This document shows, one piece after another, positions 12,515 to 47,250 of a stretch of DNA of 64,000 nt. Each line of letters opens with the position of its first letter. Positions within the stretch are counted from its first letter, which is position 1. The DNA lies in assembly GCF_003790525.1 (NCBI RefSeq), contig NZ_CP033635.1. One strand, 5' to 3'. The DNA comes from Escherichia coli. GTDB lineage: Bacteria; Pseudomonadota; Gammaproteobacteria; Enterobacterales; Enterobacteriaceae. Both the position numbers and the translations under genes were made by a program. Under the pieces are notes generated by a model that was not told the DNA's origin, did not search any database, and saw only the letters and a program-made list of their open reading frames with translations.

Positions 12515-12529
12515 TTACCTTAAAGGTAT
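12515..12529. promoter_or_regulatory. TTACC-N5-GGTAA palindromic operator-like site (TTACC TTAAA GGTAT), upstream of int
   Basis: Core palindrome TACCTTAAAGGTA; one of ~14 related sites in the prophage. Confidence 0.45.
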
Positions 12530-12571: not shown

Positions 12572-13822
12572 GTGCTTACCGATACAAAATTAAAGAACCT
12601 CAAGCCACAGGACAAACTGTACAAAGTTTCCGATCGTGACGGGCTGTATGTAGCTGTGCTTACGTCAGGTACGGTCTCGTTTCGCTATGACTACCGTATC
12701 AACGGTCGCCGCGAAACACTGGTAATCGGGCAGTATGGGCGTGACGGTATCAGCCTGGCAGAAGCGCGAGAAGAACTGATTGCTGCAAAGAAGCTGCTTA
12801 AAGCAGGCCAGTCGCCGGCTGCGGCTAAACGTGACGGTATCAAAAAGATTCGTGGTGCCGAGACGTTTGCGGTACATACCGACAGTTATATGAAACACGT
12901 CATCCTGGCTGAAAGTACCCGCGCAATGAAGCAGGCAGTGATCGACCGTGACATACTTCCTGTTCTTGGCAACAAAATGATGACTGAAATTACCACATCG
13001 ATGGTTCGTGATTTGTGTGACCGGATTGTCGAACGCGGTGGTCGGGCAACAGCAGTACAGGCCAGGGAGATCATTAGCAGCGTATACCGTCACGCCAATG
13101 ACCGTGGTCATGGTTTGTTTAATCCTGCGGCTGACATTAAACCTTCGTCTATCGCCATATTTAAACCACGAGAGCGAACACTGACACCAGAAGAAATTGG
13201 TCTGTTCTTCCGCACGCTGGATGCCATTGGTGCTATGGGCACTATGAAAATGGCTTTAAAGCTGGTGCTTATCACTATGGTTCGTAAAGGCGAATTCACC
13301 AATGCAACGTGGGACGAAATAGATTTTAAAAAATGGACATGGACAATTCCTTCAGACCGCATGAAGGGAAGCCGGGCGCACGTTATTTACCTGCCAAAAC
13401 AGGCACAGGATATATTGGTTGGGTTGCAGATGTGCGCTGGTGGAAGTGAATATCTGGTTCCTGGTCGTTACAATTTCCGGAAGCCATTATCTAATGCCGC
13501 ACTGAACTCTCTGATCGACAGAACGGTGAAAATAATAAATGAAGATGGTGAGCATATTCAGGGCTTCACCGTACACGATATGCGCCGTACAGCCAGTACG
13601 TTGTTGCATGAGGCTGGTTATCCTTCAGACTGGATTGAAAAGGCTCTGGCACATGAGCAGAAAGGTGTGCGCGCCGTATATAACAAAGCGGAATACGCCA
13701 GACAGCGCGCCTACATGTTGCAGCAGTGGGCCGATATGATTGATTCCTGGATTAACGGGGAGCATACGGATCTAATTCCGTTCTCCCCGTCGAAGTTTGA
13801 GAAGTGGATGGCGGGGGAATAA
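12572..13822 (+). CDS. int: tyrosine-type phage integrase (P4-like family)
   Basis: GTG start; N-terminus MLTDTKLKNLKPQDKLYKVSDRDGLYVAV and C-terminal catalytic region VHDMRRTASTLLHEAGY...AHEQKGVRAVY typical of tyrosine recombinases; adjacent to attL. Confidence 0.9.
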   Translation: MLTDTKLKNLKPQDKLYKVSDRDGLYVAVLTSGTVSFRYDYRINGRRETLVIGQYGRDGISLAEAREELIAAKKLLKAGQSPAAAKRDGIKKIRGAETFAVHTDSYMKHVILAESTRAMKQAVIDRDILPVLGNKMMTEITTSMVRDLCDRIVERGGRATAVQAREIISSVYRHANDRGHGLFNPAADIKPSSIAIFKPRERTLTPEEIGLFFRTLDAIGAMGTMKMALKLVLITMVRKGEFTNATWDEIDFKKWTWTIPSDRMKGSRAHVIYLPKQAQDILVGLQMCAGGSEYLVPGRYNFRKPLSNAALNSLIDRTVKIINEDGEHIQGFTVHDMRRTASTLLHEAGYPSDWIEKALAHEQKGVRAVYNKAEYARQRAYMLQQWADMIDSWINGEHTDLIPFSPSKFEKWMAGE

Positions 13823-14020: not shown

Positions 14021-14679
14021 GCAGCACGCTCCCGCCCCTGGTTGTCTGTTGGTGACAGCGGAGAATTGCTGAATGCATTTGTTAATCCGCCAATATCCAA
14101 CGCGTATCCAGGGTGTAGTTGCACTGCCGAGTTTTCGCACTGATTACCCCAAACATCGAAGCCATGAGACGACTGGCGGGCGAACAGTTCAATGCGAGAA
14201 ACATCGCCTAACAATTGCACAAGTTTTTCACGAACGACATCTGGTTTTCTTGAGTGCTCAAGCCGCGGTGCGGTAAATGACTGAACGATCCCTGCATTAA
14301 TGCGCGGAGGTAGTTTTCCCTTTACCGCAAACAGGCAATCTTCACTATTGGCGCGGGTCATGTGTCCCATACCCATAACCAGTTTATCTGGTTGTCGACT
14401 ACCACATTTTATCCACGTGAAGCCCTTCATGGTCATAAGACGAAATCCCCAGGCTTCAACAACTTTTAGTGCTTCGAGTGGTTGTGTTGGCACCCACCAC
14501 ATGGCCAACAGACAGTTTTCAGCGGCCAAATCCCACACAGGAAGGCGGCAGATATCCAGCACACTCATAACTGGATATTTAAAACCGGCACCGCGATTAC
14601 CATCTGCGGCTTTGTCCCGGTATACCCAGGGTGGATCTGCATAGATTAGTGTGTATTTCTTAGTCATAAACCACCCCAC
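14017..14679 (-). CDS. DNA N6-adenine methyltransferase, MT-A70 family (orphan, no cognate nuclease seen)
   Basis: DPPW catalytic motif in LIYADPPWVYRD near N-terminus; 220 aa. Confidence 0.8.
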   Translation of the reverse strand: MGWFMTKKYTLIYADPPWVYRDKAADGNRGAGFKYPVMSVLDICRLPVWDLAAENCLLAMWWVPTQPLEALKVVEAWGFRLMTMKGFTWIKCGSRQPDKLVMGMGHMTRANSEDCLFAVKGKLPPRINAGIVQSFTAPRLEHSRKPDVVREKLVQLLGDVSRIELFARQSSHGFDVWGNQCENSAVQLHPGYALDIGGLTNAFSNSPLSPTDNQGRERAA

Positions 14680-14959
14680 AACATCCTATGCCGCCATAGT
14701 CGCCACGGCGAAGGCCGTTACCTTTTGTGATACATTGGTCCCTGCGAACCGCGATCCTTGCACGCTCAACATCACCAGAAGCAACATCCATACACTGAAG
14801 CCAAAGGTGAGCGGCAATGCGGAACTGCCCTTTTTTCTCTCTTTCAATCGCGCGTTTTTCGATCTCTATCGCCGCAGGAGTAACGGCGACAATCTTTGAC
14901 GGACTGCGCATTGAAACCTTGTTCATGTGATATTTTTCAAGTCGGCTTAACTTTCTCAC
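14660..14959 (-). CDS. hypothetical protein overlapping MTase start (true start uncertain)
   Basis: ORF in operon context between alpA-like gene and MTase; no recognisable motif. Confidence 0.3.
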   Translation of the reverse strand: MRKLSRLEKYHMNKVSMRSPSKIVAVTPAAIEIEKRAIEREKKGQFRIAAHLWLQCMDVASGDVERARIAVRRDQCITKGNGLRRGDYGGIGCCGVVYD

Positions 14960-15068
14960 TTAATCCAACCCTCTCTGAAAATTAATGCCAGCAGATAAAG
15001 CCATGCTGAAACAGAGGCCAGGAATAAGTACCATCCTGACCATTTGCTCCAGTGCCTTAGCAGCACAC

Positions 15069-15317
15069 TCATGCAGCGTTGCTCACAGGACGATATACAC
15101 GTTGCTGAACAGGAGGCTTTTTACCCTGGAACTCTGCCGGGCTTGCTGCCTGACGTTCATCAAGCCAACGCTCAACTTCATCACGGTTCCATGCGCAGCG
15201 TTTATCGGTGATATACCAGCGTTTAGGAAATTCCCCTGCGCGCTCCATACGGTCGATAGTGCTCCATGACAGTGGCACCACCGCCAGGAGTTCCTTCTTA
15301 CCTAATGCACCTTTCAT
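15069..15317 (-). CDS. AlpA/excisionase-like small DNA-binding protein
   Basis: 82 aa; LLAVVPLSWSTIDRMERAGEFPKRWYITDKRCAWNRDEVERWL resembles AlpA/Xis-type HTH proteins. Confidence 0.65.
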   Translation of the reverse strand: MKGALGKKELLAVVPLSWSTIDRMERAGEFPKRWYITDKRCAWNRDEVERWLDERQAASPAEFQGKKPPVQQRVYRPVSNAA

Positions 15318-15366: not shown

Positions 15367-16248
15367 TTACATAGATGTTTCGTTTAATTCTTCCCGACGA
15401 ACGCTGTAAACGTCGGTGGCTTTTGCCAGCAGTTCGTCATCATCTGAAAGTTTTTGTGCAATGTATTTGTAAGCCTTATCCAGTTCGGAGACAGTGCTGT
15501 AATTCATCGCTGCGCTGGTAAAGGCCATCAGCATTTCTTCTGGCTCACGGCTATCCGCTTTACGCGTTTGCTCATCAGGCTTTTTCACTGATTTAGCGTT
15601 GATCAGACTGTTCATTCCCGCAGCCGTAGTCATTTGCGGAGTAATGTCTCGCTCAACGCGCGGTGCCGTTTCCTGTAATTCGTCAGGGGTGTAAACACCG
15701 AGAAGTACATCAGGAGCGTGCAGGCGAGCCCATCGTTTCGTGCAAAGATATGCAAGTTGCTGGCGCGGATCCTGTTCCCACAATGGAGAGTTACGCACTC
15801 CTGCTTGCGCCATACTGATGGTAAGCTCACGTGGTTCTGCTTCTCCTTTAAGAACTGCTGACACAGTTACCGTCAGATTCGGTGATTTATCTGTTTTGCC
15901 GTTAACATTCGACCAGTCACCGCTCCAGCGATAATTCAGGCGTGTCGCCAGCAGGCTGGAAGAGGATACGACCGCGTTTACCAACTGTGCTTCGTAGCCT
16001 AACGTTCCGTTTACCACATGCGTTTTCTGCGCCACGGCGAAAGGGTTCATTCCCCACTGTGCCGCCTGCATGGTCACCGCCAGGCAATCGGCAGGTTTGC
16101 CTTCAAGATGTTTCGGTACAGTCGCTTTGCTTTGTGACATCAACTCCGCGAAACGCACCAGTTGATTCATACCCTCGGGGCTGAAGATTGCAGCAGCAGT
16201 GCCTACAGTTGCGCCTGGTTGTGATGTGATTGCGATATCATTGCTCAT
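15367..16248 (-). CDS. RecT-family single-strand annealing recombinase
   Basis: 293 aa; position immediately downstream of and coupled (ATGA overlap) to the exonuclease gene; RecT-like sequence. Confidence 0.75.
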   Translation of the reverse strand: MSNDIAITSQPGATVGTAAAIFSPEGMNQLVRFAELMSQSKATVPKHLEGKPADCLAVTMQAAQWGMNPFAVAQKTHVVNGTLGYEAQLVNAVVSSSSLLATRLNYRWSGDWSNVNGKTDKSPNLTVTVSAVLKGEAEPRELTISMAQAGVRNSPLWEQDPRQQLAYLCTKRWARLHAPDVLLGVYTPDELQETAPRVERDITPQMTTAAGMNSLINAKSVKKPDEQTRKADSREPEEMLMAFTSAAMNYSTVSELDKAYKYIAQKLSDDDELLAKATDVYSVRREELNETSM

Positions 16249-17066
16249 ACGTACATATCCTGTTTACGTGCCCAGTCAGGGCGTTTAATAATTTCCACTC
16301 CGCCCCATTCATCGTTGATGCGGCATTCGTGATAGGTATTCAGATCCCGGCGGAACAGAGCGTGCCCGGCATCGACATCCTGCGCATCCAGCTCGAACAC
16401 GCGTACCGGATACCGACCACAATCAATGCTTTCGCTCACGGCAAGAAAGAAAAAACCATGCGGCTGACCAGTAACCATCATTGCGCCTTCGCGGTACATT
16501 GCGTCCTGCACGTGGTAGCGGAATTCCTCGATGTGGCGTGCAAAACGGTCCATATCTGCAACCTTTTTCACGTCGACGATCACGTTGTGCTCGTTCAGCC
16601 ATTTGTCTGGACGAATTCGGCACAACTCCCCCGTCTCTTCATCGTTCCAGTACATTGATGCTTCGCAGTAACCAGGTGCTTCCAGCATCCAGCGTGCCGC
16701 CGGGTGAGCCATTGCGCTATCACGCATCAGCTCCAGTTTCCGCCACTGCTCGGCATCAAGTACCGTAATCCCCATATCCGCCACATCACGAAGAAATTCC
16801 TCTTCGTCAGCTTTACCTTGTTTCGTCCGACGATCGAATTTCGGTGAAACAATGAAGCGTTTGTCGAACTCTCCAGGCTCCAGAAGCAGACAGTGCAATG
16901 CGGTTCCCATATCCAGTGCAGACTTTTTCTCTTCGTCTTCTGGTGCTGCCTGAACCCATTTAAGAAGCGCCGGATTCTTGGCAACCATGTCCAGTTGCGA
17001 CTTACTCACGCCGTCACCGGCGTGGTAGTCTTCGTTGCTGATGTCGAAATAAATTCCCGGTTTCAT
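16245..17066 (-). CDS. phage recombination exonuclease (RecE C-terminal / PD-(D/E)XK-like)
   Basis: 273 aa; MKPGIYFDISNEDYHAGDGVSKSQLD... N-terminus typical of this exonuclease family; partner of RecT. Confidence 0.7.
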   Translation of the reverse strand: MKPGIYFDISNEDYHAGDGVSKSQLDMVAKNPALLKWVQAAPEDEEKKSALDMGTALHCLLLEPGEFDKRFIVSPKFDRRTKQGKADEEEFLRDVADMGITVLDAEQWRKLELMRDSAMAHPAARWMLEAPGYCEASMYWNDEETGELCRIRPDKWLNEHNVIVDVKKVADMDRFARHIEEFRYHVQDAMYREGAMMVTGQPHGFFFLAVSESIDCGRYPVRVFELDAQDVDAGHALFRRDLNTYHECRINDEWGGVEIIKRPDWARKQDMYV

Positions 17067-17362
17067 GCCGCGTCCCTCTGCCCATCAAGCTGATCAGCCA
17101 GATCCCAGCGGGCGATAATTGCCATTGCCTCGCGCCGGTAGGCATCCATTAGTTCTTCGAACTCAGGGCTGTCTTTAGCGGCCTCCAGTACTTCCTGGCG
17201 AACGCCTTTAACTGTTACAACGTCGAAAGTTGATGCCAGTTGATGAAGCCGGATACTCTCAATCAGTTCAACTTGTCGGTCATATAGCTGTTCTGACAGA
17301 CGGTAGTCCTTGTCGAATGCCAGCATGATTTTTTGAAGATTTTTCTGCTGATTAACGTTCAT
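17063..17362 (-). CDS. hypothetical early protein (start MNVNQQ)
   Basis: ATGA overlaps with flanking genes; SD GGGAGGG upstream. Confidence 0.4.
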   Translation of the reverse strand: MNVNQQKNLQKIMLAFDKDYRLSEQLYDRQVELIESIRLHQLASTFDVVTVKGVRQEVLEAAKDSPEFEELMDAYRREAMAIIARWDLADQLDGQRDAA

Positions 17363-17364
17363 TA

Positions 17365-17517
17365 TCAGCCCTCCCATATCTCGTTATCGTTGGCCACATC
17401 GCGAGCTTCTTTGCTGACGAAAGCCCACTTAATGCCTTCCTGTAAGGTGCGGAACTTCCAGCTCATGAATCCGCATGCAGTAACGCAGTACCAACCGTTG
17501 ATGATTTTCCACTGCAT
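17365..17517 (-). CDS. small Cys-containing early protein (50 aa), first gene of leftward early operon
   Basis: ATG 17517 with SD GAGGTAA; MQWKIINGWYCVTACGFMSWKF...; not in ORF track (<60 aa). Confidence 0.3.
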   Translation of the reverse strand: MQWKIINGWYCVTACGFMSWKFRTLQEGIKWAFVSKEARDVANDNEIWEG

Positions 17518-17536: not shown

Positions 17537-17551
17537 TTACCGTTGAGGTAA
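17537..17551. promoter_or_regulatory. TTACC-N5-GGTAA operator-like site (perfect), leftward early promoter region
   Basis: TTACC GTTGA GGTAA. Confidence 0.5.
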
Positions 17552-17598
17552 TAATTATGCGTATATGGTTTGATGTCAATAGATATGAGTTAAAAAAA

Positions 17599-17613
17599 TT
17601 ACCCGTTAGGTAA
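17599..17613. promoter_or_regulatory. TTACC-N5-GGTAA operator-like site (perfect), leftward early promoter region
   Basis: TTACC CGTTA GGTAA. Confidence 0.5.
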
Positions 17614-17622
17614 TCGAATAGG

Positions 17623-17650
17623 CAATAAAAAAGCCGCCATAAGGCGGCTT
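17623..17650 (-). terminator. rho-independent terminator after repressor gene
   Basis: aagccgcc ataa ggcggctt hairpin with T-run on minus strand. Confidence 0.55.
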
Positions 17651-17670
17651 ACTTACTGAAAAATATGGTT

Positions 17671-18255
17671 TTATTGTTTGTTTTTTTCGTTCTGGTTGAT
17701 GACAAATTCAATGTAACTTTCGATCTTTGCTTTCTCGGTTTCGGGTAACAATGCGTAGCGCGAGCGATCATAGTTGATGGTCGCAGGGTCATGCGGATGA
17801 ATCAGTAGTTCATATCCGTGACGCCCGAATGCAGATGCAACATTCTCCAGGGTGGAAATGGAAACGCTGACCTCATTGTTTAACAGGCGGCTTATTGTCA
17901 CCTGGGCGACGCCGGATGCGCGGTGAAGTTTTCCCTGAGTTGAAAGGTCGCGGCTTTCACTCATCCAGCGTTCCAGGTTGTGAGCCGCCAGCTGACCTAT
18001 ATCACTCGGGCCGACAGGCTGAAAACCCTCCTGAGAAAGCGAGCGATCAATATCAAGCCAGTTACGGGGTTTATTGGCGGCAGCTTCAATTTTTCGCGCA
18101 ACCTGGTCGCCGATAACCTTCTTGCCAAGAGCCCAGCGGTTTACCAGATTTGCCTGAGTTCCAAGTTTTTCTGCCATCCGCGTCTGAACACCATTGAATT
18201 CACGGTCGATCAAGTCGTTGAGATTTTGCCTGCGGACGTCCTGGATACTTTTCAT
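17671..18255 (-). CDS. putative immunity repressor with two HTH regions, no S24 peptidase domain
   Basis: 194 aa; HTH-like segments TRMAEKLGTQANLVNRWALG and ASGVAQVTISRLLNNEVSVSISTLENVASAF; divergent from cro-like gene across an operator cluster. Confidence 0.6.
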   Translation of the reverse strand: MKSIQDVRRQNLNDLIDREFNGVQTRMAEKLGTQANLVNRWALGKKVIGDQVARKIEAAANKPRNWLDIDRSLSQEGFQPVGPSDIGQLAAHNLERWMSESRDLSTQGKLHRASGVAQVTISRLLNNEVSVSISTLENVASAFGRHGYELLIHPHDPATINYDRSRYALLPETEKAKIESYIEFVINQNEKNKQ

Positions 18256-18310
18256 TTTCTGGAAAATCGCCTCATATATGAATCAGTAGATGATTCAATT
18301 TAAAGCAATA

Positions 18311-18325
18311 TTACCCAACAGGTAA
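18311..18325. promoter_or_regulatory. operator-like site 1 of 3 in repressor/cro intergenic region (perfect TTACC CAACA GGTAA)
   Basis: Palindrome in divergent promoter region. Confidence 0.55.
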
Positions 18326-18327
18326 AT

Positions 18328-18342
18328 GCACCTCATGGGTAA
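18328..18342. promoter_or_regulatory. operator-like site 2 of 3 (GCACC TCATG GGTAA, one degenerate half)
   Basis: Adjacent to site 1. Confidence 0.35.
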
Positions 18343-18358
18343 CTATCCTTGATTTTTG

Positions 18359-18373
18359 TTACCTTATGGGTGA
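18359..18373. promoter_or_regulatory. operator-like site 3 of 3 (TTACC TTATG GGTGA), overlaps putative rightward promoter
   Basis: Possible -35 TTGATT at 18349-18354 and -10-like GAATAT at 18372-18377. Confidence 0.4.
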
Positions 18374-18409
18374 ATATTTATTATCTGAAATAAATATCAG
18401 GCAATAGCT

Positions 18410-18640
18410 ATGAGCGATAACGGACATTTCGATTTCAAAAAGCACTGGCTTGCACTTACTCCGGATGAGCGTGAAGCCTTCGCACAGGAAGCCGGAACGA
18501 CGAGTCACTATATCCAGACTCACTTAACAGGTAAGCGCAAAATGCCAGGTAAAGTATTGATGAATGGGCTTTTTAAAGCCTGTAAAACAAGACAATGGCT
18601 GCGCTCAAAAGCAGAACTGGCATACTTCTTCTACTCATGA
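18410..18640 (+). CDS. Cro-like small regulatory protein
   Basis: 76 aa; divergent from repressor; MSDNGHFDFKKHWLALTPDEREAFAQEAGTTSHYIQTHLTGKRK. Confidence 0.5.
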   Translation: MSDNGHFDFKKHWLALTPDEREAFAQEAGTTSHYIQTHLTGKRKMPGKVLMNGLFKACKTRQWLRSKAELAYFFYS

Positions 18641-18695
18641 TATCCAGCTACAACCCTCTGTAGACCGCCACCCGGCGGTCTTTTCATATCTATTC

Positions 18696-18710
18696 GTACC
18701 TCAAAGGTAA
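18696..18710. promoter_or_regulatory. TTACC-N5-GGTAA-like site (GTACC TCAAA GGTAA)
   Basis: Between cro-like gene and next ORF. Confidence 0.35.
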
Positions 18711-19812: not shown

Positions 19813-20560
19813 GTACGATCGCTTACGTGAGCATGGTGTTGCTGTGCATGAAGAGCGGCGTGACAGCAATGGCAAAAAGGAGCAGGTCGCTAGAATTTTC
19901 AATGAACTATTTGTCCAGTTACAGGCTGCATTTCCCGCAAGCGTTTCGACCATAAGGGAGCAGAACAAACTTAATGAATTCCGTAAGCAATGGATGCTTG
20001 CGTTTCTGGAGAATGGGATCACAACAATGGAACAGGTTAACGCTGGTATGCGCCACGCCCGCGCCAGTGAGTCTCCGTTCTGGCCGTCGCCAGGGCAATT
20101 TATCAAGTGGTGTAAAGACAGCAAGATGGTTCTTGGCGTCACCATTGACGATGTGATGGCGGAGTTTCACCGGTACAGCAAGGAAAAAAGTTTATATCCT
20201 GGTGGTCCCGAAAGATTCCCGTGGCGGCATCCGGTTATGTACTGGGTCGTATGTGATACCCGCCGTGCAATGTATCAGCGCCAGCTTAGCGAGATTGAAG
20301 TTGAGAAACACGCGCGCAGGCTGCTCGATGATTGGGCGAAAAAGGTGGCTTCCGGGCAGCAGATACCCGATCCGGTGATCAGCATACAGGCAAAGCCAGA
20401 ACCCATGAGTACGCCTCCGGACACAGGGAGAGACGTTTACCACCCGCCAGGGCGAAGTTTCGGGTGCATGCCTAACGCCGCCACCCTTGGGGGAATAACA
20501 CCGGCTCAGTGGCTGATGGAGGAATACAGGCGGGGAAAGGCGGCAGGATTTATCAAGTAA
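19784..20560 (+). CDS. replication protein P-like (DnaB helicase loader)
   Basis: Segment FPASVSTIREQNKLNEFRKQWMLAFLENGITTMEQVNAGMRHAR closely resembles lambda P as recalled. Confidence 0.7.
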   Translation: MKSTPELLNEYDRLREHGVAVHEERRDSNGKKEQVARIFNELFVQLQAAFPASVSTIREQNKLNEFRKQWMLAFLENGITTMEQVNAGMRHARASESPFWPSPGQFIKWCKDSKMVLGVTIDDVMAEFHRYSKEKSLYPGGPERFPWRHPVMYWVVCDTRRAMYQRQLSEIEVEKHARRLLDDWAKKVASGQQIPDPVISIQAKPEPMSTPPDTGRDVYHPPGRSFGCMPNAATLGGITPAQWLMEEYRRGKAAGFIK

Positions 20561-20597: not shown

Positions 20598-20612
20598 TTA
20601 CCTGTAGGGTAA
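20598..20612. promoter_or_regulatory. TTACC-N5-GGTAA operator-like site (perfect)
   Basis: TTACC TGTAG GGTAA. Confidence 0.5.
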
Positions 20613-20659: not shown

Positions 20660-20674
20660 TTACCTCAGAGGTAA
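20660..20674. promoter_or_regulatory. TTACC-N5-GGTAA operator-like site (perfect), ends 4 nt before ATG 20678
   Basis: TTACC TCAGA GGTAA; GAGGT half doubles as SD. Confidence 0.5.
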
Positions 20675-24772: not shown

Positions 24773-24813
24773 GAGTAGATTATGCATGATGAATTTGATG
24801 GGTTTTGAATACT

Positions 24814-24839
24814 GCCGCCAACTATGGCGGCTTTATTTT
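24814..24839 (+). terminator. rho-independent terminator at end of early/replication region
   Basis: gccgcca acta tggcggc hairpin then tttatttt. Confidence 0.55.
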
Positions 24840-24850
24840 GCATGGTACTA

Positions 24851-24865
24851 TTACCACAACGGTAA
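24851..24865. promoter_or_regulatory. TTACC-N5-GGTAA operator-like site (perfect) upstream of terminase small subunit
   Basis: TTACC ACAAC GGTAA; degenerate second copy at 24869-24883. Confidence 0.5.
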
Positions 24866-24882
24866 CTATTACCACGGTGGTT

Positions 24883-25479
24883 ATGATGCCTGCTGAACCT
24901 AAAACCTATAAACGCAAATCAACGCAATTTAAGCCGCTCACAGCAATGCAGGAGGCTTATTGCCAGTCATACATCAAAACGCCTGAAAACCAGACTCAGG
25001 CAGCGATTAACGCAGGATTCTCCCCAAATACAGCGGCAGTTAAAGCCAGTGTCATGATGCGCGATGAACGCATTCAAAAACGGATTGCCGAGTTGATGGA
25101 GGAGCGCAACAAACGAATGCGCGTCAGTGCTGATTACGTTCTCATGCGCCTGGTGGAGATCGACCAGATGGACGTGATCGATATCCTCAACGACGATGGG
25201 AGCCTTAAACCAATCCGTGAGTGGCCGAAAATCTGGCGCACTACGCTTAGTGGCTTTGATCTGTCATCGACCATCATGAACATGAACGAGGATTCGATAG
25301 AGACAATCCTCAAAAAAATTAAATGGCCTGACAAGGTGAAGAACCTCGAACTGATTGGTAAGCACGTCGACGTTAACGCGTTCAAAGAACGTCTGGATGT
25401 TAATGTGAATGTGACAATTGCTGATCGCATAGCAGCAGCCAGGAAGCGACTCAAAGAACGTCAGGATGGTAATCAGTGA
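24883..25479 (+). CDS. terminase small subunit
   Basis: Start MMPAEPKTYKRKSTQFKPLTAMQEAYCQSYIKT...; directly precedes terminase large subunit. Confidence 0.6.
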   Translation: MMPAEPKTYKRKSTQFKPLTAMQEAYCQSYIKTPENQTQAAINAGFSPNTAAVKASVMMRDERIQKRIAELMEERNKRMRVSADYVLMRLVEIDQMDVIDILNDDGSLKPIREWPKIWRTTLSGFDLSSTIMNMNEDSIETILKKIKWPDKVKNLELIGKHVDVNAFKERLDVNVNVTIADRIAAARKRLKERQDGNQ

Positions 25480-26950
25480 CAGATACAGCGTTATCTCCTG
25501 AAGAGCAGTTGATCGAGGATATTGCAGGGTTCACTCACGATCCGCTTGGCTATGCCCTCTATGCGTTCCCGTGGGGGAAGAGGGTACTGAACTGGCACAT
25601 GCCACCGGCCCACGTCAGTGGCAGGCTGATGCGTTCCGAGAGATACGTGATCACCTGCAGAATCCAGAGACGCGCTATCAGCCGCTTATGCTGGCACGCG
25701 CTTCTGGTCACGGTATTGGTAAATCCGCATTCATCTCAATGCTGATCAACTGGGGCATGTCCACTTGCGAGGATTGTAAGGTCGTGGTGACCGCCAACAC
25801 CGACAACCAGCTACGAACTAAGACCTGGCCGGAAATTATCAAGTGGTCGAACCTTGCTATCACGAAAGACTGGTTTACCTGTACCGCTACCGCGATGTAC
25901 AGCAATGATCCTGGGCACGACAAGCGGTGGCGAGCTGACGCAATCCCTTGGTCTGAGCACAACACTGAGGCATTCGCCGGACTACACAACGAGCGTAAAC
26001 GCATCATCGTGGTATTTGATGAAGCGTCGAACATTGCGGATCTGGTGTGGGAAGTTGCCGAGGGTGCGCTAACGGACGAAGACACTGAGATTATCTGGGT
26101 GGCGTTCGGAAACCCTACACGTAACACCGGACGTTTCCGCGAATGTTTCCGCAAATATAAACACCGCTGGAAAACTGCGCAGATTGACAGCCGAACGGTG
26201 GAAGGCACTAACAAACAGCAGTTGCAGAAATGGGTTGATGACTACGGGGAAGACAGCGACTTCGTTAAAATCCGTGTGCGCGGCATATTCCCTGATGCAT
26301 CTGAATTGCAGTTTATCCCTACCGGTCTTACTGATGAGGCAATGAAACGGGTGGTGACCGCTGCGCAGGTGGCGCATGCTCCGGTGATAATCGGTGTTGA
26401 CCCGGCATATTCAGGCGTTGATGACGCGGTGATATACCTGCGGCAGGGGCTACACAGTAAGGTGCTGTGGACTGGCAACAAGACTACCGACGATCTGATT
26501 ATGGCGAAGCGTATCGCTGACTTTGAAGACCAGTATCAGGCTGACGCGGTGTTCATCGACTTCGGTTACGGAACCGGTTTGAAGTCAATCGGTGATGGCT
26601 GGGGACGTACATGGCAACTTGTTCCGTTCGGTGGCGCGTCTACTGACCCGCAGATGCTCAACAAGCGTGGGGAGATGTTCAACTCATGCAAGACATGGCT
26701 GAGGCTCGGCGGCATGCTGGATGACCAGGAAACTGCAGACGACCTGTCGGCGGCAGAGTACAAAGTTCGTGTGGACGGTAAAATCGTTATCGAACCGAAG
26801 GAAGATATCAAAGAGCGGCTTGGGCGTTCGCCTGGTAAAGGCGATGCGCTACTGCTGACGTTTGCTTTCCCGGTGTCAAAGCGCCTGCGACTTCCCGGGC
26901 AGCAGAACCAGCAAGGCAAGGCGCTTACCGAGTACGATCCATATGCTTAG
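25476..26950 (+). CDS. terminase large subunit; frame changes (-1) in a G5 run at 25573-25577, so either frameshifted or it starts at GTG 25571
   Basis: Walker A ASGHGIGKS in frame of 25571-26950; upstream 32 codons (GTG 25476, overlapping terS stop, SD AGGA) are in the other frame. Confidence 0.7.
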
Positions 26951-27765
26951 TCTTTATTTTTATCCTCGAAACCTGATAATCCAGATAGAACACCAAAGTT
27001 ATTAAAAACGTTTGGCTTACCAGATTTTAATCCGGATAAGTTGTGTTGCTCCAAAAAGTTACTAATTGTTTGGCCGTTGCCAAGTGCAAGGCTTTTTATT
27101 TGAGATTTTTCAGGGTATTTGAGTTTGTATTCGTCGAAATCATTTTGGAGGGTCTTATATGCCTCATTCATTCTTCCAAGAGTTTCCGATATCTCTTTTA
27201 ATGAATGATTTAGAGCTGCTAACTGAGCACTGGCGGATCTCAATTCGTCATCTTTAGCTTTCAACTCGGCAGTCAATTCACCCATACTATTCTTTGATCG
27301 AATAATCTCTTCTTTCATCTCTTGGATGTCTTTTTCCGCGCCAGTCTTAACTTTGTCGTATGTAACATCTTTTTTAGCCAATAACCTCTGCAGTCTTGTT
27401 TCACGCTGGATTTTTCTTGCCTTCAGGTGATTTTCGATTGAGTCATTATTATCAAGAGGCTTTGCTTGCCATACGTTAATGATATTGTTTACCCATGGTA
27501 ATAGGCAGCAGATAGCAATTACAGATAAGCATGGATAAAACATAACAGTTTTCCATGTGCTGTTATCTGAGATATATGAAATTTTATCTATTATGTTTGA
27601 TTTGCTAAAAAATAGATAAAGAATTGATTTCCAGTTGAAGGCGCACCAGGACATAACAAAAGCACCAAGCACAGGGTTTTTGGCTCGATTCACGGCAGTA
27701 TTGGCAGTAGATAAAAACAGCTCTTTGAACGATTCAAACATGCTAATTACCTTGAAGTTTTTCAT
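26947..27765 (-). CDS. membrane-anchored coiled-coil protein, antisense to the packaging/structural genes (candidate accessory or exclusion protein)
   Basis: Start MKNFKVISMFESFKE; two hydrophobic segments then long coiled-coil; AT-rich; own upstream palindromic motif. Confidence 0.5.
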   Translation of the reverse strand: MKNFKVISMFESFKELFLSTANTAVNRAKNPVLGAFVMSWCAFNWKSILYLFFSKSNIIDKISYISDNSTWKTVMFYPCLSVIAICCLLPWVNNIINVWQAKPLDNNDSIENHLKARKIQRETRLQRLLAKKDVTYDKVKTGAEKDIQEMKEEIIRSKNSMGELTAELKAKDDELRSASAQLAALNHSLKEISETLGRMNEAYKTLQNDFDEYKLKYPEKSQIKSLALGNGQTISNFLEQHNLSGLKSGKPNVFNNFGVLSGLSGFEDKNKD

Positions 27766-27769
27766 GATT

Positions 27770-27784
27770 ATACCTTTAAGGTAA
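27770..27784. promoter_or_regulatory. TTACC-N5-GGTAA-like site (ATACC TTTAA GGTAA) immediately upstream of minus-strand membrane protein gene
   Basis: Core palindrome TACCTTTAAGGTA. Confidence 0.45.
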
Positions 27785-27901
27785 TTTGCGGTCATCAAGC
27801 AAAAAAATGCCCGGCGAACCGGGCGAACTGGAAGCAATGAGTTATGCCTTCCGTGGCTGTACGGGTTTACAGCATGAAGTCATCGCAATGGCGTCCTGCT
27901 G

Positions 27902-27987: not shown

Positions 27988-28064
27988 TGGCGCGGCATGC
28001 AGGATTCGAACCTGCGACCAACCGCTTAGAAGGCGGTTGCTCTGTCCAACTGAGCTAATGCCAC
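27988..28064 (-). tRNA. tRNA-Arg (anticodon UCU), phage-encoded
   Basis: 77-nt cloverleaf folded by hand: acceptor GUGGCAU/AUGCCGC, D-stem GCUC/GAGC, anticodon stem ACCGC/GCGGU with loop CUUCUAA, T-arm GCAGG-UUCGAAU-CCUGC, encoded CCA. Confidence 0.85.
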
Positions 28065-28386: not shown

Positions 28387-28401
28387 TTACCTGAAAGGTA
28401 A
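28387..28401. promoter_or_regulatory. TTACC-N5-GGTAA operator-like site (perfect) upstream of portal operon
   Basis: TTACC TGAAA GGTAA. Confidence 0.5.
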
Positions 28402-45815: not shown

Positions 45816-45830
45816 TTACCTTTAAGGTAA
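45816..45830. promoter_or_regulatory. TTACC-N5-GGTAA operator-like site (perfect) upstream of two-gene cassette
   Basis: TTACC TTTAA GGTAA. Confidence 0.5.
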
Positions 45831-45902: not shown

Positions 45903-46592
45903 TCAGAAGAACCCAGCCTTGTCGTTGATGTACTCCGCGTGGGTCTGGATATCACGCAGGCATTTGCTCACACCAACAATGTAGCAGAACATGGTGGTCA
46001 GCTCCGCCGCCGCGCCCGATACGTCGTGCCCGTCTTCCTGTAACTGGTTCAGCAGATTCATCAGCAGTGAGTTCTCCGTCAGGCCGAGAACACCAGACGG
46101 AGAATGAATCAGGCTGCGGTAGCCGGGCTTCAGTGGGGCACTGTAGGTTTTGTTCTCTATCTTCATTGCCTGCATCACTGCTGATGCTGTGGCGTTGGCT
46201 ACCTGGTCGGCAACTATCTTTATGCGTTCTTCCTGCGGGAGCGAGTTTTTAATGTAACTTCCGGTGCGGCGGATCTGAGGAAGAACCTCACCTGTAACCC
46301 ATTTACGAAAGCGGTAGGGGATAGTGCCTGGTGTCACTGCGTCGCGGCAGCGGAGGATCAGTGTGTAGAGGCCTGACTCGTTGATAATATTGGTTTCACC
46401 TTGACGGCCTAAGTTAAATTTAGCCCTTTCATCATCATCAAGAGATTTTATTGACATAGTGGGGTTTGTCAGTTGAAGAGCTTTAATAACGTCTTTGGCA
46501 ACAAACCAAGGATTTCCATCAATAACAATGGCTCGAATGGTGGCTTCTGATTCAAAATGAAAAACAGATGGGGTTACGTTAGCAGTCATAGT
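45903..46592 (-). CDS. Bro-N domain protein (antirepressor-like)
   Basis: Start MTANVTPSVFHFESEATIRAIVIDGNPWFVAKDVIKALQL typical of Bro-N/KilA-N-type N-terminus; SD AAAGGTGAT. Confidence 0.55.
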   Translation of the reverse strand, partial: TMTANVTPSVFHFESEATIRAIVIDGNPWFVAKDVIKALQLTNPTMSIKSLDDDERAKFNLGRQGETNIINESGLYTLILRCRDAVTPGTIPYRFRKWVTGEVLPQIRRTGSYIKNSLPQEERIKIVADQVANATASAVMQAMKIENKTYSAPLKPGYRSLIHSPSGVLGLTENSLLMNLLNQLQEDGHDVSGAAAELTTMFCYIVGVSKCLRDIQTHAEYINDKAGFF

Positions 46593-46855
46593 GATCACCT
46601 TTGTAGTTAGGTTAATCACCACTACCGACGCCAATCGGTTGGTGGTGAACTGTGCAGGGTTGGCGTAACCGGCTACAAAGGACCCGGCGCACCTTTCGGT
46701 GCCCCCACACAGCCCACCATAGAATAGGTGCGCTTTACACATAAAAAAACCGCTTATGCGGCATATGTGCCTCTGTAGTAACCCGGGACGCCAATCCCGG
46801 CACTGGATTTTGCCAGTGCCCGATTACTATGGCACAAGAGGAGTGCGATGTAAAT

Positions 46856-46870
46856 TTACCGAAAAGGTAA
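46856..46870. promoter_or_regulatory. TTACC-N5-GGTAA operator-like site (perfect)
   Basis: TTACC GAAAA GGTAA. Confidence 0.5.
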
Positions 46871-46901: not shown

Positions 46902-47159
46902 TTATCTGGTTTGTTTTCGTAATTGTTCGGCACAATAGTCGAGATGTGTTTGCAGATCCCGCATAGACATCTGTGAGCTGGTGACGTAGTTAATCAGTGC
47001 AGTCAGTTCGGCAAGTGGGCCATCGACATTAAATCCATCCTTATCGAGATCCCGGAGTAATTTCATCAAGTGCGATCCCTCCACCAGTGACCTGACGCCT
47101 CCCGGCGTGTGAATCCTTTCGGTAAATCCGTCTTCCAGTGGATAGTGATACTGCTGCAT
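46902..47159 (-). CDS. small protein homologous to the C-terminal domain of the adjacent Bro-N protein
   Basis: IHTPGGVRSLVEGSHLMKLLRDLDKDGFNVDGPLAELT aligns with IHSPSGVLGLTENSLLMNLLNQLQEDGHDVSGAAAELT of 45903-46592. Confidence 0.45.
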   Translation of the reverse strand: MQQYHYPLEDGFTERIHTPGGVRSLVEGSHLMKLLRDLDKDGFNVDGPLAELTALINYVTSSQMSMRDLQTHLDYCAEQLRKQTR

Positions 47160-47235
47160 CTTATCTTCTCCATGCAATAACTGTATATTTATACAGTATC
47201 AAATAATTTGTTTGCTATCCAGCACGTTTTGCAAA

Positions 47236-47250
47236 TTACCCGAAAGGTAA
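47236..47250. promoter_or_regulatory. TTACC-N5-GGTAA operator-like site (perfect) in divergent region upstream of tailspike
   Basis: TTACC CGAAA GGTAA. Confidence 0.5.

Follow-up and report, generated by a model that had tools for sequence, protein, structure and literature searches.

The region from 17537 to 18409 of the window, by which we mean the whole stretch of 64,000 nucleotides that was analyzed, is very probably the primary immunity module of its prophage. The host element is a phiV10/epsilon15-type (Uetakevirus) prophage of Escherichia coli, integrated at the 3' end of guaA. The explanation that we favor with high confidence for this module as a whole is a switch in which a repressor, Rep, would silence the prophage through palindromic DNA sites and a LexA-controlled antirepressor, Ant, would release it. 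The initial annotation had described a prophage immunity region whose repressor lacks autocleavage and whose palindromic operators lie at divergent promoters, with another pair ahead of the leftward operon, and the present analysis supports this description. It is largely right yet not new, because the family of non-cleavable repressor and SOS-controlled antirepressor to which it belongs has already been solved in the Salmonella phage SPC32H. The same immunity region is carried by 561 of the 5426 complete E. coli genomes. Across a 1.5-kb query, NZ_CP074701 and the window are identical, but the two diverge after ~21.5 kb of the window; beyond that position, open reading frames were called on the window itself.

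The repressor gene, rep (17671..18255, minus strand), encodes a 194-aa protein that was placed in the SPC32H Rep family by PDB and Pfam matches and by its 100% identity to both p40 of phiV10 and ORF21 of ZX5. Aligned to SPC32H Rep (PDB 5D50, chain A), it matched over residues 1 to 190 with 42% identity (E 4e-42) and is thus a full-length homologue; its residues 89 to 190 also matched 5D4Z (residues 92-198; E 4e-20). Two helix-turn-helix (HTH)-like segments had been noted in the protein, and Pfam located both, one at residues 106 to 147 (HTH_3, E 4.9e-5) and a weaker one at residues 21 to 67 (YdaS_toxin, E 0.0047; HTH_3, E 0.14). The GenBank record of phiV10 already mentions "two helix-turn-helix motifs" for p40. 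The label "double HTH" is accurate at the level of sequence, but not for the solved homologue in terms of DNA binding: in SPC32H Rep, DNA binding is assigned to the N-terminal HTH alone, the second HTH-like segment forms the middle domain, which serves dimerization and is not a second DNA reader, and the C-terminal domain is responsible for tetramerization and Ant binding (PMC9986798). By homology, the same layout of an N-terminal HTH DNA-binding domain, a middle HTH-fold dimerization domain and a C-terminal tetramerization and Ant-binding domain is predicted for the present Rep with considerable assurance.

The absence of a protease or autocleavage region, which the initial annotation had also claimed, was confirmed. 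The domain search on the repressor returned HTH domains only, with no Peptidase_S24 match, cryptic or otherwise, in a Pfam search extended to E values of 10, and neither of the autocleavage dipeptides AG and CG occurs among the 194 residues. The C-terminal half is homologous to the dimerization and Ant-binding domains of SPC32H Rep, not to S24. Lacking both S24 and AG/CG, Rep falls outside the autocleavable repressors of the LexA and lambda CI type; full-length homology, the missing S24 domain and cleavage site, and a cognate, LexA-boxed Ant in the same genome place it with the SPC32H-type repressors. Rep is without a protease domain and would therefore not undergo RecA-triggered self-cleavage. 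Overexpression of ZX5 ORF21 has been shown to reduce transcription of the lysin and holin genes by more than 99.9% (PMC9782041), and SPC32H Rep is reported to be a tetramer that binds palindromic sites (PMC9638917). For the Rep studied here, tetramerization, palindrome binding and release by Ant are predictions, with indirect support from the pairing of its sites and from the predicted recognition-helix segment NLVNRW, which is unchanged across five Reps that are only 43-78% identical overall; the half-site is likewise invariant. Covariation between Rep and its operator was sought by collecting related loci through a Rep alignment. All 80 loci returned carried a 100% identical Rep, and the set held no specificity variants because the search pattern contained the recognition helix itself. 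The rep gene is followed by a Rho-independent terminator (17631..17650, minus strand) with an 8-bp GC-rich stem and a run of T, which is annotated in phiV10. A search for the rep promoter gave no convincing candidate, the best being weak matches to 8 of 12 consensus positions.

Three sites of the TTACC-N5-GGTAA type had been proposed between the repressor and the rightward gene, and all three were found, the middle one in degenerate form. O1 (18311..18325), the closest to rep, is a perfect palindrome. O2 (18328..18342) lies 17 bp from O1 and reads GCACC-N5-GGTAA; with two mismatches it is not significant on its own. Of the 22 two-mismatch hits, it alone falls in non-coding DNA. Its position is that of a perfect site in epsilon15 and in the Klebsiella phage BUCT711, again 17 bp from the first site, and phage Tyrion retains the O2 half-sites despite a different N5 spacer. 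O3 (18359..18373; TTACC-N5-GGTGA, one mismatch) is located inside the spacer of a putative PR-like promoter (18356..18384, plus strand; -35 TTGTTA, 17-nt spacer, -10 TATTAT), predicted from a consensus match at 9 of 12 positions. This promoter can also be read as TTGATT at 18349 with AATATT at 18373. Two further sites had been placed ahead of the leftward operon, and both are present and perfect. OL1 (17537..17551) directly adjoins the -10 element of a putative PL-like promoter (17551..17579, minus strand; -35 TTGACA at 17579-17574, 17-nt spacer, -10 AATTAT at 17556-17551; predicted from a consensus match at 10 of 12 positions) and extends over its predicted start site, while OL2 (17599..17613) lies 62 bp from OL1, upstream of the -35 element. 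In each of the five relatives examined, the two OL sites are likewise 62-63 bp apart, and an unbiased repeat scan found the same copies of the palindrome. The notion of a local three-site operator is correct in that the sites exist at OR, but it overlooked that the motif is prophage-wide, with 15 sites.

On the leftward side, the first genes (15367..17517, minus strand) comprise a 50-aa open reading frame, a 99-aa open reading frame, a RecE-like nuclease and RecT. They had been described as chained by ATGA overlaps, indicating translational coupling. This holds for two of the first three junctions, at 17066 and 16248, which are true ATGA overlaps, but not for the first junction, which reads TGAtaATG and leaves a 2-nt gap. 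On the rightward side, the first gene (18410..18640, plus strand) encodes a 76-aa product that is probably a small HTH protein, and a terminator annotated in phiV10 lies past it (18662..18681, plus strand). The name "cro-like" given to this gene is favored by its position and by one PHROG hit (phrog_35, "transcriptional repressor", E 5.6e-13); the 76-aa protein had no Pfam match and no PDB sequence match. Its AlphaFold2 model (pLDDT 74) contains a helix-turn-helix at residues 18 to 38, and the top Foldseek matches of the model were the 434 repressor, YdaS and C-proteins, all of the XRE/Cro type, at non-significant scores (best E 0.55, TM-scores ~0.45).

These properties bear on the question of which protein the palindromes serve. 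They could be operators of the Cro-like protein, instead of or shared with Rep, with the distal sites serving lytic-phase regulation and not silencing. The Cro-like protein is 58-84% identical among relatives, a conservation that exceeds that of Rep and fits the invariant motif, its model has a helix-turn-helix whose nearest folds are XRE/Cro-type, and its PHROG family is that of a transcriptional repressor. In lambda-type switches, CI and Cro use the same operators. Nevertheless, we consider this reading improbable. The NLVNRW segment in the N-terminal HTH of Rep is equally invariant, the epsilon15 record gives the sites to the repressor, and the fold matches of the Cro-like protein are non-significant. 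Furthermore, the pairing of the sites matches the two DNA-binding pairs of a tetramer, the form in which SPC32H Rep is reported to bind palindromes (PMC9638917). Exclusive use of the sites by the Cro-like protein is unlikely, and operator sharing between it and Rep is quite possible; we infer from the sequence that the palindrome belongs to Rep rather than to the Cro-like protein.

The response to DNA damage had been tied in the initial annotation to a Bro-N gene. Judging from the arrangement of the genes and their control elements, this link most likely runs via a small LexA-controlled Ant and not primarily via the Bro-N gene. The ant gene (46902..47159, minus strand) encodes an 85-aa antirepressor of the SPC32H Ant family (phrog_450), which matched PDB 5D50, chain E, with an E value of 1.9e-46 over residues 8 to 90 of a longer open reading frame. 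A LexA (SOS) box, aaCTGTATATTTATACAGta (47181..47196), that agrees with 18 of 20 consensus positions lies 22 bp upstream of the ant start codon and aligns with the boxes of the SPC32H ant promoter, epsilon15, phiV10 and Tyrion. The earlier view retains some ground, since the Bro-N protein has an Ant-like C-terminal domain. This 228-aa protein, encoded by bro (45903..46589, minus strand), carries a Pfam Bro-N domain at residues 18 to 104 (E 1.3e-19), and over residues 147 to 224 it shares 41% identity with the small Ant (E 2e-16).

Two small RNAs are encoded ahead of bro on the same strand. The first (46743..46819, minus strand) is a member of the isrK family (Rfam RF01394), scoring 74.7 bits against a gathering threshold of 50 over the full length of 1-77, with a terminator at its end. 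The second (46638..46724, minus strand) belongs to the C4 antisense RNA family (Rfam RF01695) both by its score, 79.5 bits against a gathering threshold of 45 over the full length of 1-87, and by the complementarity of its loop to the bro ribosome-binding site. The loop CCUUUGUAG is complementary to CUACAAAGG, which stops 8 nt ahead of the bro ATG. The complement between loop and Shine-Dalgarno sequence is 9 nt long, and in phiV10 the loop and its target share a 1-nt deletion, a compensatory change.

That the Bro-N protein is the main DNA-damage-responsive antirepressor, with the small Ant as an accessory, is nonetheless quite improbable. In its favor, ZX5 ORF4, which is 82% identical to the Bro-N protein, has an anti-repressor effect when overexpressed and lowers lysogeny ~1000-fold (PMC9782041), the C-terminus of the Bro-N protein resembles Ant, and, since bro follows ant in the same orientation, SOS-driven read-through is conceivable. 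However, the LexA box is found at the ant promoter and not at bro, and a terminator, a separate and putatively Rep-operated promoter and the C4 RNA predicted to mask the bro ribosome-binding site intervene between the two genes. In addition, SPC32H and epsilon15 are without bro, yet retain ant and its LexA box, and in phiV10 bro matches in two pieces only, annotated as the two open reading frames p23 and p22.

Copies of the palindrome also occur outside the immunity region and accompany almost all transcription units of the prophage. A search for TTACC-N5-GGTAA with at most one mismatch gave 17 hits in the window against 1.08 expected, a number reached in none of 100 shuffles. Fifteen sites lie in the prophage, every one of them in non-coding DNA, which makes up 7.9% of the prophage (chance, ~3e-17). 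Relatives contain 13-18 hits each where fewer than one is expected, and the same positions, with fixed pairings at 62 bp or 17-18 bp, recur in five relatives. Pairs spaced by 62-63 bp are found at OL and before the DUF1064/RuvC gene in six of six genomes, and pairs spaced by 17-18 bp occur at OR and ahead of terS. Seven such sites are already labeled protein_bind "repressor" in the epsilon15 record. Among 43 sites from three genomes, the half-site bases are almost invariant; the 5-nt center varies freely and is A/T-rich. The units marked by the ~15 operators are int, the early left, early right, post-replication, terminase, head and tail fiber units, and both antirepressor genes.

One operator-type site (12515..12529) is located 43 bp upstream of int and is kept in epsilon15, SPC32H, phiV10 and Tyrion, and another, GTACC..GGTAA (18696..18710), just past the terminator of the Cro-like gene, is also found in phiV10 and Tyrion. 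Two perfect sites at 20598-20612 and 20660-20674 are 62 bp apart, as they are in all six genomes; the former falls within the spacer of a promoter-like element, and the latter coincides in part with the DUF1064 ribosome-binding site. Two sites 18 bp apart (24851..24883), placed between a terminator and the start codon of the small terminase subunit, are shared with phiV10, Tyrion and epsilon15, the first member being annotated as a repressor site in epsilon15. The site at 27770..27784 overlaps a strong promoter-like element (-10 TATAAT) of a leftward gene of unknown function. Four more sites are perfect. The one at 28387..28401 precedes the portal/head gene block, and its epsilon15 counterpart (2931-2947) carries a repressor-site annotation, as does the epsilon15 counterpart (19895-19911) of the site at 47236..47250 in the divergent ant/tail fiber region. 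A third site (45816..45830) separates bro from the leftward gene that comes next, and the fourth (46856..46870) directly follows the -10 element of a putative promoter (TTGCAA, 17-nt spacer, TATTAT) for isrK, C4 and bro. Several sites are thus inside or abutting promoter-like elements, and around some, such as those before terS and at 28387, no recognizable sigma-70 promoter was found; these may act as roadblocks or as looping anchors. The lysis-cassette operator present in relatives is absent here even at two mismatches, and that region of the prophage differs. An alternative, which we consider extremely improbable, is that the motif works in transcripts as an RNA hairpin (5-6 bp stem, 5-nt loop) with a role in processing or attenuation, for instance, instead of being bound by a protein as DNA. 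In its favor, the motif is an inverted repeat, several copies come after terminators or overlap ribosome-binding sites, and RNase III sites are annotated in part of the corresponding intergenic regions of the epsilon15 record. Against it, a hairpin would allow compensatory changes in its stem, yet the 43 sites show none, the sites in promoter spacers and upstream of -35 elements are untranscribed, and the fixed 62-bp spacing is a feature of DNA geometry.

In the Rep/Ant switch that we propose, Rep tetramers would bind 17-bp palindromes of the form aTTACC-N5(A/T-rich)-GGTAAt. At O3, Rep would occupy the core of the rightward promoter, at OL1 it would sit on the -10 element of the leftward promoter and on its start site, and from O1 and O2 it would cover the probable rep promoter and the DNA immediately upstream. 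A Rep tetramer would have two DNA-binding pairs, and its sites would therefore come in fixed pairs, 17-18 bp or 62 bp apart; 62 bp is about six helical turns and would fit looping. The Rep operator would also guard int, the gene block after the replication genes, the terminase genes, the head genes, the tail fiber/ant region and bro, and with the same operator at nearly every other transcription unit, one protein would silence the whole prophage directly. On induction, by homology to SPC32H, DNA damage would take LexA off the box at the ant promoter, the small Ant would be made, and it would strip Rep from the DNA through binding of the Rep C-terminal domains. A second tier is speculative: the Bro-N/Ant-like protein may be a second antirepressor, held behind a Rep-operated promoter and a C4 RNA masking its ribosome-binding site, that would reinforce the switch once Rep is lost.

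The fuller picture, in which Rep is a direct genome-wide silencer acting at ~15 operators in tetramer-matched pairs, with cross-immunity and a two-tier induction by LexA-controlled Ant and then by Rep/C4-gated Bro-N, is a tentative proposal to which we give slightly less than even weight. The half-site and NLVNRW are the same in the E. coli, Salmonella, Klebsiella and Enterobacter members examined, which, if the proposal is true, would mean cross-immunity among these members of the genus. Likewise, if induction has two tiers, Ant would fire first, and the Bro-N protein, gated by Rep and C4, would lock in the lytic decision. No description of the whole architecture, genome-wide silencing together with two-tier induction, was found in the literature searched. 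The discovery value of the immunity region is small, as the repressor is already present in published phages, and crystal structures and an induction mechanism have been reported for its family. Its practical use is better annotation: a "helix-turn-helix domain-containing protein" becomes Rep, an unnamed 85-aa gene beside the tail fiber gene becomes SOS-controlled Ant, aTTACC-N5-GGTAAt sites flag putative Rep-controlled units, and bro is recorded as lying downstream of isrK and C4. Experiments on how a tetrameric repressor silences a whole podovirus prophage may draw on the operator census, on the fixed spacing and on the fusion of Bro-N to an Ant-like domain.

Compared with known systems, the present prophage shows no essential difference from phiV10, ZX5 and epsilon15 in the immunity region; outside it, the prophage is a mosaic variant that departs even from its closest chromosomal match after ~21.5 kb. 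It shares with SPC32H the three-domain Rep, Ant, and the motif and positions of the operators (PDB 5D50, 5D4Z; Kim & Ryu 2013 and Kim et al. 2016, as cited in PMC9638917 and PMC9986798), and the same LexA box and Rep site occur in the ant/tail fiber region. However, outside the N-terminal DNA-binding domain the two Rep sequences have diverged, there are two OL sites here and three in SPC32H, and the module of isrK, C4 and Bro-N/Ant-like protein is present here and missing from SPC32H. With epsilon15, the prophage shares dispersed annotated repressor sites of the same motif.

In phage P1, a single repressor (C1) acts at many operators, asymmetric 17-mers scattered over the genome, and an antirepressor gene is governed by a promoter under repressor control and by a C4 antisense RNA complementary to the ribosome-binding site. 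The likeness to P1 immunity (C1 and immI with c4 antisense RNA, icd and ant) is functional only and extends to the logic of dispersed operators and of C4-ant control. The PHROG and Pfam hits of Rep contained XRE-type HTH families only and no homology to C1, so that the system is not of the P1 C1 type; the operators here are palindromic, and induction most likely proceeds via LexA-controlled Ant. Lambda has the same order of PL-OL, repressor, OR and divergent Cro-like gene, with three OR sites, but Rep differs from repressors of the lambda CI/LexA type in having neither S24 nor a cleavage dipeptide, in its oligomerization domains and in its predicted inactivation by an antirepressor. In the Gifsy and Fels-2 repressors with LexA-controlled antirepressors, and with Tum of phage 186, SOS induces an antirepressor that inactivates a repressor not subject to cleavage (Lemire et al. 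2011, PMC3121763; reviewed in PMC7380047). The logic is the same as that of Rep and Ant, carried out by different protein families. The Ant of SPC32H is reportedly structurally distinct from siphovirus and myovirus antirepressors.

The repressor gene rep (17671-18255, minus strand) is an ORF of 194 amino acids, in which Pfam placed helix-turn-helix (HTH) segments at residues 106-147 (HTH_3, E = 4.9e-5) and, more weakly, at the N-terminal residues 21-67 (YdaS_toxin, E = 0.0047; HTH_3, E = 0.14), bearing out the two HTH-like segments described in the initial annotation. Rep had also been described as having no autocleavage region, and a cryptic S24 peptidase domain had been named beforehand as the finding that would speak against this. 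A Pfam search of Rep gave no S24 peptidase match and its sequence contains no AG or CG dipeptide; the description stands, and a lambda CI or LexA-type identity for Rep was rejected on these grounds. Rep is 100% identical to phiV10 p40, whose GenBank note already says "two helix-turn-helix motifs," and to ZX5 ORF21. Overexpression of ORF21 in ZX5 abolished free phage and reduced endolysin and holin transcripts by >99.9% (PMC9782041).

Over its full length, Rep is homologous to its namesake from Salmonella phage SPC32H, a protein of solved structure (5D50 chain A, E = 4e-42, residues 1-190), and it is matched by 5D4Z, which covers SPC32H Rep residues 92-198 (E = 4e-20). SPC32H Rep consists of an N-terminal DNA-binding domain, a middle dimerization domain, and a C-terminal domain for tetramerization and Ant binding (PMC9986798). 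It binds palindromic sites as a tetramer, with paired N-terminal domains contributed by different dimers, and is disassembled by tetrameric Ant (PMC9638917). Given the SPC32H domain layout, the HTH at residues 106-147 corresponds to the dimerization domain rather than to a second DNA reader. Within the N-terminal HTH, the segment NLVNRW is unchanged among five Reps of just 43-78% identity, which fits the unchanged operator half-site. Divergence of Rep across relatives was concentrated outside the N-terminal DNA-binding domain.

A search for the Rep-type motif TTACC-N5-GGTAA with at most one mismatch gave 17 matches across the window, where 1.08 were expected; none of 100 shuffles reached that number. 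Fifteen of these belong to the prophage, and the remaining two, each with one mismatch, fall within host genes, consistent with a chance expectation of about one. All 15 prophage sites are in non-coding DNA, which makes up 7.9% of the prophage (P about 3e-17). The three sites claimed between rep and the gene for the Cro-like protein were all located in the operator group OR: O1 (18311) is perfect, O2 (18328; GCACC..GGTAA), in the middle, is degenerate with two mismatches, and O3 (18359) has one mismatch. Two further sites had been placed before the leftward operon, and both OL1 (17537) and OL2 (17599) proved to be perfect. An unbiased repeat search recovered the same copies. O2 is statistically weak taken alone, and it is the only two-mismatch match outside genes. 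It lies 17 bp from O1, exactly where epsilon15 and Klebsiella phage BUCT711 carry perfect sites, and its half-sites are kept in phage Tyrion with an altered spacer.

The remaining sites are dispersed along the prophage. Single sites are found upstream of int (12515), directly past the terminator that follows the Cro-like gene (18696), and ahead of both a leftward gene without assigned function (27770) and the block of portal and head genes (28387). Three more (45816, 46856, and 47236) are located around the genes for the antirepressors and the tail fiber. Pairs lie before the DUF1064 gene (20598 and 20660, 62 bp apart) and between a terminator and the start of the small terminase subunit gene, terS (24851 and 24869, 18 bp apart). 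The sites at 18696, 20598, and 24851 are directly 3' of rho-independent terminators. In each of the five relatives scanned (epsilon15, SPC32H, Klebsiella phage BUCT711, Enterobacter phage Tyrion, and phiV10), 13-18 matches were found against <1 expected, at matching genomic positions. The OL pair and the pair before the DUF1064/RuvC gene keep a spacing of 62-63 bp in each of the six genomes. The OR and terS pairs have a spacing of 17-18 bp. A logo of 43 sites reads aTTACC-N5(A/T-rich)-GGTAAt, with almost invariant half-sites and a free center. Seven such sites are already annotated as protein_bind "repressor" in the epsilon15 RefSeq record, and dispersed Rep sites are thus not a new idea.

Two palindromes overlap Shine-Dalgarno sequences, so that operator and ribosome-binding site have bases in common: 20660-20674 overlaps GAGGTAA, 3 nt upstream of the ATG of the DUF1064 gene, and 24869-24883 overlaps GGTGGTTA, adjoining the terS ATG. 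In phiV10 (L008, 41-121), the terS start is annotated at 41, a choice that would make the Rep sites at 87 and 105 intragenic. The sites precede the terS start in epsilon15, and in the window (24805-24884 compared) the ATG at 24884 comes after both sites; the phiV10 annotation probably sets the start too far upstream.

Promoters were called by consensus matches alone. The predicted leftward promoter has its -35 element (TTGACA) at 17579-17574 and, after a 17-nt spacer, its -10 element (AATTAT) at 17556-17551; OL1 begins at the final base of this -10, and OL2 is upstream of the -35. The predicted rightward promoter (-35 TTGTTA, 18356-18361; 17-nt spacer; -10 TATTAT, 18379-18384) holds O3 within its spacer. 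Sites also lie in or overlap the spacer of a predicted promoter at 20598 and 27770, and the site at 46856 is directly past a predicted -10. O1 and O2 occupy the stretch where the rep promoter must lie, in which no promoter was definable by consensus match. The same approach revealed no recognizable promoter around the pair ahead of terS or around the 28387 site; these may be roadblocks or looping anchors. The first leftward genes had been described as chained by ATGA overlaps; this holds for two of the first three junctions, the first junction being TGAtaATG.

The leftward operon also codes for a PerC-family activator and an AlpA/excisionase-type regulator (14660-15317), possible extra regulators of the lytic program. 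After the terminase genes, there is a leftward ORF without assigned function (26947-27837; phrog_4780), of up to 296 aa if translation begins at an upstream TTG. Its promoter-like element is close to consensus (-10 TATAAT) and overlaps a Rep-type site. An int-alpA RNA was matched by Rfam in Tyrion (L007, 2605-2669; 44 bits versus 35.8), near the gene following the terminase genes; Rfam gave no int-alpA match in the window.

The 76-aa Cro-like product (18410-18640, plus strand) had a single PHROG match, phrog_35 "transcriptional repressor" (E = 5.6e-13), and no Pfam or PDB sequence match. Its AlphaFold2 model (pLDDT 74) contains a helix-turn-helix; the nearest folds were 434 repressor, YdaS, and C-proteins, none significant. 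Across the relatives and host genera compared, the Cro-like protein (58-84% identity) is more conserved than Rep (43-78%). Ant is likewise strongly conserved. In lambda, Cro shares operators with the repressor, and by analogy the Cro-like protein may share operators with Rep.

The small antirepressor gene ant (46902-47159, minus strand; 85 aa) lies 29 kb from rep, and its product matches SPC32H Ant (5D50 chain E, E = 1.9e-46). A LexA box, CTGTATATTTATACAG (47181-47196), is 22 bp upstream of the ant ATG and, in its 20-nt context, agrees with the consensus at 18 of 20 positions. The entire ant/tail fiber intergenic region, LexA box and Rep-type palindrome included, aligns in SPC32H, epsilon15, phiV10, and Tyrion. 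In SPC32H, ant is reportedly under LexA control and Rep is said to remain uncleaved during the SOS response. A review backs the general statement of a LexA-controlled antirepressor and an uncleaved repressor (PMC7380047). Ant (region 46902-47196) is, judging by sequence, the likely SOS-controlled antirepressor. In NZ_CP074701 and phiV10 (p24), the corresponding proteins carry only the label of hypothetical protein.

The bro gene (45903-46589) encodes 228 aa with a Bro-N domain at residues 18-104 (Pfam, E = 1.3e-19). Residues 147-224 share 41% identity with the whole of Ant (E = 2e-16), and both proteins match phrog_450; the product is a fusion of a Bro-N domain to an Ant-like C-terminal domain. 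The same architecture was seen in ZX5 ORF4, Tyrion gp20, and Klebsiella relatives, and phiV10 bro matches only as two pieces, annotated as ORFs p23 and p22. The Bro-N protein is 82% identical to ZX5 ORF4, overexpression of which lowers lysogeny ~1,000-fold (PMC9782041). Between ant and bro, Rfam gave full-length matches to isrK RNA (46743-46819; 74.7 bits versus 50), with a terminator at its end, and to C4 antisense RNA (46638-46724; 79.5 bits versus 45). The C4 loop CCUUUGUAG is an exact 9-nt complement of CUACAAAGG, a stretch spanning the Shine-Dalgarno sequence of bro. Both RNAs also lie ahead of bro in phiV10 and Tyrion, and phiV10 carries matching, compensatory 1-nt deletions in C4 loop and target. 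The isrK/C4/bro module is alike in logic to phage P1 immI, and isrK, C4, and a BRO-N gene have already been described together in APSE phages (PMC7313666).

The immunity region lies inside a prophage of ~39.5 kb inserted at the guaA 3' end, with the integrase gene at 12572 and lysis genes ending near 51.8 kb. A tRNA-Arg gene (anticodon TCT; 27988-28064, minus strand) lies between the terminase and portal blocks, as in relatives. The 1.5 kb around the immunity region shares 95-99% identity with phiV10, ZX5, TL-2011b, and further phages of the Uetakevirus group and is present in 561 of 5,426 complete E. coli genomes. The closest chromosome, NZ_CP074701 (L001), has few mismatches to the window until ~21.5 kb and departs beyond it in a comparison by position, through either an indel or a replaced segment; the block with the immunity region would thus be common to differing prophage variants. 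Beyond ~21.5 kb, the annotation was made in this analysis and not borrowed from NZ_CP074701.

Collectively, these findings confirm the initial annotation as largely right, with minor corrections. The immunity system is already known from phiV10, epsilon15, ZX5, and SPC32H. The remaining novelty is modest: the full operator census with fixed pair spacings, an operator specificity common to four host genera, and a putative second antirepressor, the Bro-N protein with its Ant-like C terminus, under apparent C4 control. By sequence, the immunity region is a member of the SPC32H Rep/Ant family by every criterion testable in this analysis, working like the SPC32H switch. The likeness of its dispersed operators and C4-gated antirepressor to those of phage P1 is confined to their logic.
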